From IMG/VR virus record IMGVR_UViG_2703718803_000022: a stretch of 8,933 nt of DNA; one strand, given 5' to 3'. Within the stretch, counting starts at the first letter, position 1; each line of letters opens with the position of its first letter. Below the pieces are notes generated by a model that saw only the letters and a list, made by a program, of their open reading frames with translations, made no database searches and was not told the DNA's origin. Shown here piece by piece: positions 4,071 through 5,494 of this stretch. This DNA comes from a virus (Duplodnaviria > Heunggongvirae > Uroviricota > Caudoviricetes). A program made the translations under genes and the position numbers.

Positions 4071-4586
4071 ATGGCGTTAACACACCGCGAACTCTGTCAG
4101 ATTGCGTACAAGTTCCTTAAGCGCAACGGGTTCAAGGTTTGTTTTCATGACCGCTTTATAGCTGTAACCAGTACCGGAGAACAGCCAGATGCTATGGGGT
4201 TCAGAAATTCAGCATCATGCCTGATAGAGGCGAAGTGTTCTCGTGCTGACTTGTTGGCAGATAGAAATAAGCGTTTCCGTAAAAATCCCTCACTTGGCAT
4301 GGGCGACTGGCGATTCTTTATTAGTGAGCCGGGAATTATTTCAGTTGAGGATTTACCTCCCGGCTGGGGATTACTTCACGTTGTTAACGGAAGAGTACGG
4401 AAAGTACATGGGTGGCCCAAGGGTAATTGCTGTTGGGGTAATCCTGACGATAAGCCATTTACTGGAAATAAGCAGGTTGAATGCGATTACATGTTATCTG
4501 CATTAAGGCGCATGGAGTTGAGAGGGCACCTTAATGAAATATATGACGGTGTAATTGTTAATAAGAAAGAAGGAAACGCGGCATGA
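4071..4586 (+). CDS. PD-(D/E)XK nuclease-like protein (restriction-endonuclease fold, possibly VRR-NUC-like)
   Basis: 171 aa. Strong RBS AAAGGAGAG 6 nt upstream. N-terminal helix, then hydrophobic strands, then ...GEQPD(40)AMGF...ASCLIE(53)AK(55): a canonical PD-x13-ExK arrangement. Family assignment is by motif only. Confidence 0.6.
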   Translation: MALTHRELCQIAYKFLKRNGFKVCFHDRFIAVTSTGEQPDAMGFRNSASCLIEAKCSRADLLADRNKRFRKNPSLGMGDWRFFISEPGIISVEDLPPGWGLLHVVNGRVRKVHGWPKGNCCWGNPDDKPFTGNKQVECDYMLSALRRMELRGHLNEIYDGVIVNKKEGNAA

Positions 4587-5494
4587 TCACTATTACCAAA
4601 GAGCGACTGCTGACAATCCAGCATTGGCGCGAAACATACGGACCGGGTAGCAACGTTGTGCTTCCAGCAGAAGAAGCGGAAGAGCTGGCACGGATTGCGC
4701 TGGCATCGCTGGAAGCAGAGCCGGTGGCAAAGATTATAGCTCATTACCCATTAGGGGTTGACGTAGGCAAACAAAAATTCGTACAGGCCATTAGAGAGCT
4801 TCCTGACTTTGGCGGATATCTATTTGCCGCCCCTCCAGCGCCGATAGTGCCGGAAGAAATGTATTGGCAGGATGCGCCAGTTGAAGGCAGCAGCAAAGCG
4901 GCTGCATACGCTACAGGCTGGAACGATTGCCGCGAAGCCATGCTTCAGTCCGGAAACTTTCGGGAAAATAAAGATTCGTCAACCAATAATTTTCGGAAAA
5001 TCCCGGAAGCGTCAACCAGCTCTCCGGTAACTCCGGCTCTTCTGCCTGGTGGTTTCACCATTGAGGAGGCGAAGGAATTACATGAAGACCTGGTACGCAG
5101 CCACATAAGCAAGGCCTTAAGTGGCGAAAAGATGAAAAAGAAAGATCGCGATGCTGATTTGCGCTGGATTCATGGCGTTATAGTTCAGGCAGCGTGGTTT
5201 GTAAAAGCATCACTGGAGCAGAATGCACTATCGGGCAACTCTACGGTAACTCCGGATGGTTGGATAAGCTGTAGTGAGCGAATGCCTGAAAAGAACCAGA
5301 ATGTGCTTATTTCGGTGAATTTCGATAGATCTCTGGTTGAACCGCTAATATGCTCCGCACGCTATACAGGAAGCACCTTTCGGCGTGGGCAGATAACGGT
5401 TGCGCCTGGTAATGGTATTGATGGTAATGGTATTGAACAGGCCACACACTGGATGCCGCTACCGGAACCGCCGCAGGAGGTTAACCGTGGCTAA
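4583..5494 (+). CDS. Modular phage protein, paralog B: conserved N-terminal module with a DUF551-like C-terminal domain
   Basis: 303 aa. ATGA overlap with the upstream gene. N-terminus shared with the 3408 gene. C-terminal region ...DGWISCSERMPEKNQNVLIS...THWMPLPEPP matches my recollection of the DUF551 signature (W-I-x-x-x-ERLP ... HWMPLPEPP). Contains a 15-bp tandem duplication encoding GNGID-GNGIE. Confidence 0.75.
   Translation: MITITKERLLTIQHWRETYGPGSNVVLPAEEAEELARIALASLEAEPVAKIIAHYPLGVDVGKQKFVQAIRELPDFGGYLFAAPPAPIVPEEMYWQDAPVEGSSKAAAYATGWNDCREAMLQSGNFRENKDSSTNNFRKIPEASTSSPVTPALLPGGFTIEEAKELHEDLVRSHISKALSGEKMKKKDRDADLRWIHGVIVQAAWFVKASLEQNALSGNSTVTPDGWISCSERMPEKNQNVLISVNFDRSLVEPLICSARYTGSTFRRGQITVAPGNGIDGNGIEQATHWMPLPEPPQEVNRG
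4604..4707 (+). repeat. Direct repeat copy 2: identical to 3429-3532
   Basis: As above. Confidence 0.9.

Follow-up and report, generated by a model that had tools for sequence, protein, structure and literature searches.

The DNA analysed here is a stretch of 8,933 nucleotides (hereafter the window; IMG/VR virus record IMGVR_UViG_2703718803_000022, Caudoviricetes) that carries two genes, the open reading frames ORF-A and ORF-B, whose products begin with the same N-terminal module; this module, residues 1-48 of each protein, is referred to below as the head. The sequence of the window shows 100% identity both to the Stx1a-converting prophage at wrbA of E. coli O26:H11 11368 and to Stx1a phages that have been sequenced. 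It occupies their early-left arm, from the cIII/kil side to xis/int, and represents the ea or exo-xis type accessory region, between the recombination functions and xis, of a temperate enterobacterial phage. At the DNA level the shared module is a direct repeat of 143 nt with 96% identity (3408-3550 and 4583-4725) that begins exactly at both ATG codons, and the encoded residues are near-identical (BLASTP E = 5e-29). An initial annotation made from the sequence alone had noticed a shared N-terminal module of roughly 47 aa; it described ORF-B as the head fused to a DUF551-type C-terminus and ORF-A as the same head on an unrelated 105-aa domain, and likened the pair to polymorphic effector families. 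The DUF551 assignment was borne out by the hidden Markov model (HMM) search, in which PF04448 matches ORF-B residues 226-298 with 76.5 bits against a cut-off of 22 (E = 2.9e-21) and over the entire model (positions 1-68 of 68).

The occurrence of the head was defined with an exhaustive phmmer search of 1.84 billion cluster representatives (50% identity level), which replaced an initial homolog search with the 49-aa head that had returned only short or partial proteins and revealed little about architectures. The head is present in 567 clusters at E <= 1e-3 and in 429 at E <= 1e-10. Among the best 150 clusters, from which architectures were read, identity within the head is 82-96%, the proteins are 65 to 418 aa in length, and in 146 of them the head stands at the N-terminus. 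The sequence that follows is highly diverse: average-linkage clustering at >= 40% identity separates the first 35 residues behind the head into ~59 types, single linkage having over-merged the bodies via common linker motifs. Pfam searches of the 150 representatives identified DUF551 in 39, PF04447 in five, DUF4752 and Ead_Ea22 in one each, and no family in ~104; PF04447, a MazG-like dATP/dGTP pyrophosphohydrolase domain, is the sole enzyme family named among the partners of the head. Of 5426 complete E. coli genomes, 1318 contain head DNA, at most seven copies being present in any one genome and 188 copies lying on plasmids, and the head is found as well in P7 (Upf89.5), in P22-like Salmonella phages, in Klebsiella, Cronobacter and Yersinia phages, and in an Enterobacter genome. 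PHROGs scatters it over several families of unknown function, and ORF-A and ORF-B both match phrog_3323 and phrog_5117 through it. The survey of module-bearing proteins that the initial annotation had proposed therefore yields a module joined to at least four Pfam domains and spread over lambdoid, P22-like, P1/P7-like, Klebsiella, Cronobacter, Enterobacter and Yersinia lineages; since the head is not confined to one lineage and the DUF551 domain passes its HMM test, the shared-head architecture is real.

Strict N-terminal placement on many unrelated bodies is also what would be expected of a targeting leader that sends diverse cargo to the virion or the membrane, as the N-terminal capsid targeting sequence does for the internal proteins of phage T4. 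We consider this very unlikely, because the genes lie in the early left operon beside recombination and Ea22-type genes and not among virion head genes, and because inspection of the 48-residue acidic, helical module reveals no hydrophobic signal and no recognisable cleavage motif.

To separate selection on the peptide from selection on the DNA, 67 distinct viral contexts were aligned on the ATG. Averaged over all pairs, nucleotide identity rises from ~0.45 upstream to 0.88-0.98 between the ATG and +135 and drops to ~0.30 beyond this point, so that the head DNA is a sharply bounded island of high identity (~93%). Within this island the variation at third codon positions exceeds that at first and second positions 2.5-fold, and the ratio of the proportions of nonsynonymous and synonymous differences (pN/pS) is 0.16 over the whole head and 0.04 over codons 15-36. 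Across the 150 clusters, 14 residues of the head are invariant and 25 further residues are at least 90% conserved. Between genera pS reaches 0.48-0.77 while pN remains at 0.07-0.13, and this combination of near-saturated synonymous sites with low pN indicates that the head peptide has long been kept by selection. High DNA identity starting exactly at the ATG could instead point to a cis-acting nucleic-acid element, that is, an RNA structure, promoter, terminator or protein-binding site within the 143 nt, the peptide being incidental. An RNA element is ruled out by the folding z-scores of the head (-0.7 to +0.1, no excess structure on either strand) together with the absence of an Rfam match, and a promoter or terminator by promoter- and terminator-like sites that occur at chance level; as third codon positions also diverge freely across genera, the cis-element explanation is largely refuted and retains hardly any plausibility. 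Concerted evolution of the heads within one phage was likewise considered and rejected, identity within a locus (0.936-0.957) being equal to the mean between loci (0.939).

The DNA of the head is in addition a site of exchange. The protein P0112 (locus L088), which is common in E. coli (757 contigs; 782 index blocks), combines the start of the ORF-A head with the body of ORF-B: L088 is collinear with window positions 2314-3550 and then with 4583-5507, and within its head the bases at positions 5, 10 and 21 are those specific to ORF-A, the ones specific to ORF-B beginning at position 126. L088 results from a crossover in the stretch of ~104 nt over which the two repeats are identical, an event that removed (or, in the reverse direction, inserted) 1175 bp. 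Further joints are visible against a P22-like phage, with which identity above 90% is limited to short islands: the head itself, the borders of DUF551 (56 nt where it starts and 41 nt where it ends), and the two extremities of the Ead/Ea22 gene. Identity to Stx2a phages is 99.8% as far as ~5290, beyond which they diverge. Mosaics have been defined as tracts of at least 100 bp with more than 90% identity between otherwise dissimilar regions (PMC3945230), and the head tract, 143 nt at 90-96% identity in unrelated genes and phages, falls within this definition. Temperate phages are known to exchange small fragments via phage recombinases (PMC3945230), and the pattern observed here is the fragment-scale, homology-driven mosaicism described in that work.

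These observations raise the question of whether the head is a recombination joint and nothing else, that is, a recently spread homology tract encoding a peptide without a function of its own. The sharp DNA island with its internal crossover, the similar short islands at other gene and domain edges, the known behaviour of temperate phages (PMC3945230), and the pS of only 0.13-0.22 between heads on unrelated bodies in the E. coli, Salmonella and P1 pool would all fit such a tract. It does not account for a peptide that persists across genera with synonymous sites near saturation, for the very low pN/pS of the core codons, or for the 39 invariant or highly conserved residues, and we regard a pure joint as improbable.

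Downstream of the head, the ORF-B gene is a chain of about six exchangeable segments and not a head plus an effector (Table 1). The end-points of BLAST high-scoring segment pairs (HSPs) against the family pile up at residues 48-50, 91-93, 122-125, 151-152 and 206-222, and the complete architecture recurs in abundant E. coli proteins of 289-307 aa. Individual segments recur as well. The PAP(V/I)VPE linker motif is found in 80 of 140 family bodies and is common to both genes (AALPAPVVPE at 3699-3734 in ORF-A, AAPPAPIVPE at 4826-4861 in ORF-B, 78% nucleotide identity), while GWNDCREAML is found in 36 of the 140. The 105-aa remainder of ORF-A, described at first as unrelated, is therefore not unrelated throughout, as it shares this linker with ORF-B. 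ORF-A gives no Pfam match; it matches phrog_660 (E = 6e-44), phrog_26213 and phrog_250; phrog_660 and phrog_60, the latter matched by ORF-B, are families of unknown function.

Table 1. Position of ORF-A, ORF-B, their segments and adjoining features in the window (AlphaFold2 confidence is given as the predicted local distance difference test, pLDDT)
Feature	Position	Strand	Description
Ead/Ea22 gene	2772-3212	+	PF13935 match
ORF-A, 152 aa	3408-3866	+	Head, segment ending PAPVVPE, C-terminal piece found in other PHROG families
ORF-A head, residues 1-48	3408-3551	+	Second copy of repeat
Conserved 171-aa ORF	4071-4586	+	Directly upstream of ORF-B; stop overlaps ORF-B start (ATGA)
ORF-B, 303 aa	4583-5494	+	Head, four middle segments, DUF551; intact ORF, phrog_60 E = 4e-65
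ORF-B head, residues 1-48	4583-4726	+	Predicted helix 6-19, loop, helix 29-43; no Pfam family
ORF-B segment 2, residues 49-91	4727-4855	+	Ends in PPAPIVPE linker; HSP ends at residues 91-93; low model confidence
ORF-B segment 3, residues 92-125	4856-4957	+	Predicted helix 103-122 with GWNDCREAML; pLDDT 66-76; HSP ends at 122-125
ORF-B disordered linker, residues 126-151	4958-5035	+	Ser/Thr/Asn-rich; pLDDT ~30; HSP ends at 151-152
ORF-B helical segment, residues 152-215	5036-5227	+	Two long predicted helices, low confidence
DNA island at linker and DUF551 start (SGNS.VTPDGWISCSERMP)	5234-5289	+	94.6% identity to P22-like phage SE1, flanks unrelated
ORF-B DUF551 domain, residues 226-298	5258-5476	+	PF04448 match; predicted five-stranded beta domain
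15-bp perfect tandem duplication	5407-5436	+	Tandem Repeats Finder: period 15, 2.0 copies, 100% match; DUF551 loop
DNA island at DUF551 end (THWMPLPEPPQEV)	5444-5484	+	92.7% identity to SE1, flanks unrelated

The alleles of ORF-B illustrate how these segments are exchanged. Three DUF551 subtypes occur on the ORF-B body and switch directly after WISCSERMP, the island at 5234-5289 being the junction where the subtypes change, and in some alleles DUF551 has been lost. The alleles P0100, P0101 and P0104 (375-395 aa) have 70-100 residues of their middle segments duplicated internally, a pattern that is consistent with unequal crossover at repeated linker motifs; the disordered linker of ORF-B itself holds an imperfect 33-nt direct repeat (4955-4985 and 4988-5018). 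The head can also be replaced: in P0130, P0172 and P0104, with P0172 present on at least 999 contigs, an ORF-B-type body carries an alternative head (MTTITKERIELFIKNPVENGLTRGEQM-ELARIALASLEAEPVA) that matches the head studied here only over the first ~8 residues and the ELARIALASLEAEPVA end. The 15-bp tandem duplication reported by the initial annotation is perfect (5408-5437 in codon phase, GNGID/GNGIE), and the sister alleles P0106 and P0112 (298 aa) have one copy of the unit. Because the duplicated residues (278-282) lie in a low-confidence loop between two strands of the structural model, the duplication is probably a neutral, allele-specific loop extension.

In RefSeq, the Prokaryotic Genome Annotation Pipeline (PGAP) represents ORF-B as two 'incomplete DUF551' pseudogene fragments, 4583-5035 and 5231-5494 (4784-5236 and 5432-5695 in L001). 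Taken literally, these two partial calls would make ORF-B a decayed chimera, a pseudogene assembled from fragments of two DUF551 genes. The frame is intact, the full-length architecture recurs in many clusters (among them the widely distributed P0172 and P0112), and the body is under some constraint (pN 0.005 against pS 0.014), which together render decay a highly improbable explanation. The split has probably arisen artefactually, because the mosaic structure of the gene confuses the protein evidence that is aligned to it.

Structural models of ORF-B were generated with AlphaFold2. The single-sequence model was useless (mean pLDDT 36), and the model built with a 93-sequence alignment (mean pLDDT 55) reached usable confidence only for DUF551 (64-87) and the helix at residues 103-122, the linkers being disordered. 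In a Foldseek search of BFVD the top matches of this model were DUF551 proteins (E from 1e-4, probability 0.97-1.0), with low overall template modelling scores because the remainder of the model is disordered. From the predicted fold, DUF551 may tentatively be described as a small SH3/Tudor-like beta-barrel and a putative binding module. The domain has remained functionally uncharacterised, as the initial annotation stated, apart from indirect phenotypes of YfdS (PMC4776307).

The proposal that the head is a constant adaptor, with DUF551 and the ORF-A tail as alternative activity domains in the manner of polymorphic effectors, has to be weighed against this distribution of DUF551. A constant N-terminal module under purifying selection, joined to many C-terminal partners that include the enzyme family PF04447, agrees with the proposal. 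DUF551, however, occurs not only in more than a quarter of the 150 head clusters but also on variant V2 of Ea22, on YfdS (PMC10834534), and as small stand-alone phage proteins, so that its behaviour is that of a common module; next to the head it is the second portable module to recur in these proteins, and not a variable activity domain or a lineage-specific effector. Most of the variability lies in the middle segments, searches of ORF-A and ORF-B against Pfam, NCBIfam and PADLOC (defence systems) gave no toxin, enzyme or immunity signature, with no PADLOC match for either protein, and the genes belong to an early phage operon with no evident secretion context. A polymorphic-effector arrangement is therefore unlikely. 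The notion of a constant, selected module joined to many bodies stands; the casting of DUF551 as the variable activity does not, and the effector likeness is not supported for ORF-A and ORF-B.

The explanation that we favour and hold to be reasonably probable is that ORF-A and ORF-B are members of a very large family of early accessory proteins, assembled as mosaics like beads on a string, whose selected head doubles as a recombination joint. Homologous recombination uses the DNA island of the head to swap all downstream sequence, and shorter islands, located at the linkers and at either end of DUF551, mark where other segments change. The head appears to be an acidic two-helix hairpin, too small to fold stably alone and unlikely to be catalytic, and it would most likely act via protein-protein contact, mediating self-association or docking on one common phage or host partner. 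A docking head would bring many different bodies to one place early in infection or induction, while DUF551 may add a second generic binding surface and the variable middle segments may carry specificity. To judge by position, the role of these proteins could be the non-essential modulation of the host or of phage development, as for the neighbouring Ea22.

Four observations weigh against this account. The low pS within the E. coli, Salmonella and P1 pool implies that the apparent conservation of the head there is partly the result of recent exchange. The head has no match in Pfam, NCBIfam, PADLOC or PDB, and these searches revealed no relative in sequence or structure that points to an activity. 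Its two helices reach a pLDDT of only 55-63 in the AlphaFold2 model, and the existence of the alternative head on the ORF-B body means that the head is not indispensable for that body.

A candidate partner of the head would be the conserved 171-aa protein encoded directly upstream of ORF-B. This protein has 98.8% amino acid identity to P7 Upf89.0 and 90% identity to gp48 of Klebsiella phage VLCpiS13b, each of which is likewise encoded directly upstream of a head gene, and the junction between the 171-aa gene and a head gene is present in 44 of 87 sampled head copies. The pairing is not obligatory, as ORF-A has no 171-aa gene upstream. No match to the 171-aa protein was found in Pfam, NCBIfam, PADLOC or PDB; its motif GEQPDAMGF-x11-IEAKCSRADLLAD bears, by eye, a possible resemblance to a PD-(D/E)xK nuclease core. 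RefSeq labels part of the gene 'frameshifted', and the frame is intact in the window. P7 (L084 1970-2952) and the window (4052-5034) have in common a block of ~1 kb with 86% DNA identity, which covers the 171-aa gene and the head and extends into the body. No recent mosaics (>90% identity) have been reported between the lambdoid and P1-like groups (PMC3945230), and this block, which lies below the 90% threshold, shows ancestry common to the two.

A stronger version of the docking idea would make the head a universal docking or oligomerisation tag that brings rapidly shuffled small effector bodies to one conserved partner, perhaps a hub protein of the host or a conserved protein of the phage; a candidate for the latter would be the 171-aa ORF, translationally coupled before about half of the head genes. 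We see this as a minor possibility; if true, it would be the phage counterpart of bacterial polymorphic effector systems, with the DNA of the tag doubling as the shuffling site. Whichever partner is involved, if the head binds a single one, its identification would provide a handle on a whole class of orphan phage proteins.

The genes surrounding ORF-A and ORF-B are all co-directional and comprise, in order, an AAA_24 ATPase, a 195-aa ORF, Abc2 (anti-RecBCD), DUF2737, a 215-aa ORF, Ead/Ea22, a 63-aa ORF, ORF-A, a 65-aa ORF, the 171-aa ORF, ORF-B, DUF1382, DUF1627, a 77-aa hypothetical protein, DUF4222, xis, int and the host gene wrbA; in 48 of 80 loci the head gene is preceded by an Ead/Ea22 gene. 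The recombination module (423-2007, +) consists of the ATPase (PF13479; 423-1103), the 195-aa ORF, which belongs to no family, and Abc2 (PF11043, E = 1e-35). We take the ATPase to belong to the Sak4-type recombinase family, and the 195-aa ORF may, on the same assumption, be its SSB-like partner. At the other end, wrbA (8355-8933, +) begins 4 nt ahead of the integrase stop codon, which shows that the prophage is inserted at wrbA, where several Stx phages integrate. ORF-B overlaps at its 3' end with the DUF1382 gene: the RefSeq start of that gene (ATG 5427; 5427-5642) falls inside the region of the 15-bp duplication, and the PHROG match begins near GTG 5487 (5487-5642; 8-nt overlap with ORF-B), so the annotated start may be too far upstream. 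The DUF1627 gene contains a perfect tandem repeat of four 9-bp units at 5871-5906 (+; CAGTGCAGC) that encodes PVQ repeats. The sequence AAAGGAGAGTGA-N-ATG (...KGE stop, Shine-Dalgarno sequence, next ATG) occurs at 3195-3216 and 4052-4073, where it closes the Ead/Ea22 gene and the 65-aa ORF, respectively; the first copy is 96.7% conserved in a P22-like phage, and the junction looks like a conserved boundary sequence.

The kind of system described here, mosaic early accessory proteins of temperate phages, is already known, as is lambdoid mosaicism itself. New is a Pfam-uncovered and unusually promiscuous head module whose sequence serves both as a selected peptide and as a recombination joint, so that the locus offers a clean, datable example of a coding module with both properties. 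A single unannotated module of 48 residues heads hundreds of early phage proteins, and about one complete E. coli genome in four contains it; the mosaic structure accounts for the pseudogene fragments that annotation pipelines wrongly make of such genes and argues for a head domain family. In lambdoid and Stx phage genomes, no part is less well understood than the genes from the recombination functions to xis, yet these influence the lysis-lysogeny decision and hence the release of Shiga toxin.

Among known systems, the internal proteins of T4 and the polymorphic toxins resemble the head proteins in formal layout. In contrast to the T4 proteins, the head proteins show no recognisable processing motif or packaging context, and their early-operon position argues against a common role. 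Polymorphic toxins likewise join one constant N-terminal piece to many alternative downstream pieces, but with no recognisable toxin/immunity pair, no evident secretion context and an early-operon location the likeness is an analogy only; the head matches no known trafficking domain, and the downstream DUF1382 and DUF1627 genes have no known immunity role. YfdS of the cryptic prophage CPS-53 is related through the C-terminus of ORF-B, a clear DUF551 member, and is similarly prophage-borne; it differs, as do most of the DUF551 proteins found in BFVD, in being short and in having no such head. Indirect hints of function for YfdS are that its deletion is peroxide-sensitive and that a multicopy effect is seen together with yfdQR (PMC4776307). 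Literature searches on EaA/P22 and the exo-xis region of Phi24B returned nothing specific to the present genes.

Of the cases described so far, Ea22 of lambda and Stx phages comes closest; its genes are mosaic and occur as variants V1-V3, the C-terminus of V2 being DUF551, which was termed a portable domain (PMC10834534). Ead/Ea22 (PF13935) and the head proteins occupy the same exo-xis neighbourhood and share the design of a constant N-terminal part with exchangeable C-terminal domains. They differ in the sequence of the head, which gives no PF13935 match in ORF-A or ORF-B and lacks a long coiled coil (the single PF13935 match among the 150 head proteins notwithstanding), and in the number of following types, ~59 as opposed to the few C-terminal variants of Ea22. 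Ea22 favours lysogeny, while the head proteins are known here from sequence alone. With temperate-phage mosaicism in general the locus shares tracts of 40-150 nt with 90-98% identity between unrelated flanks, including a crossover inside one tract; it differs in that the head tract is not just a gene boundary but a coding module under strong purifying selection.

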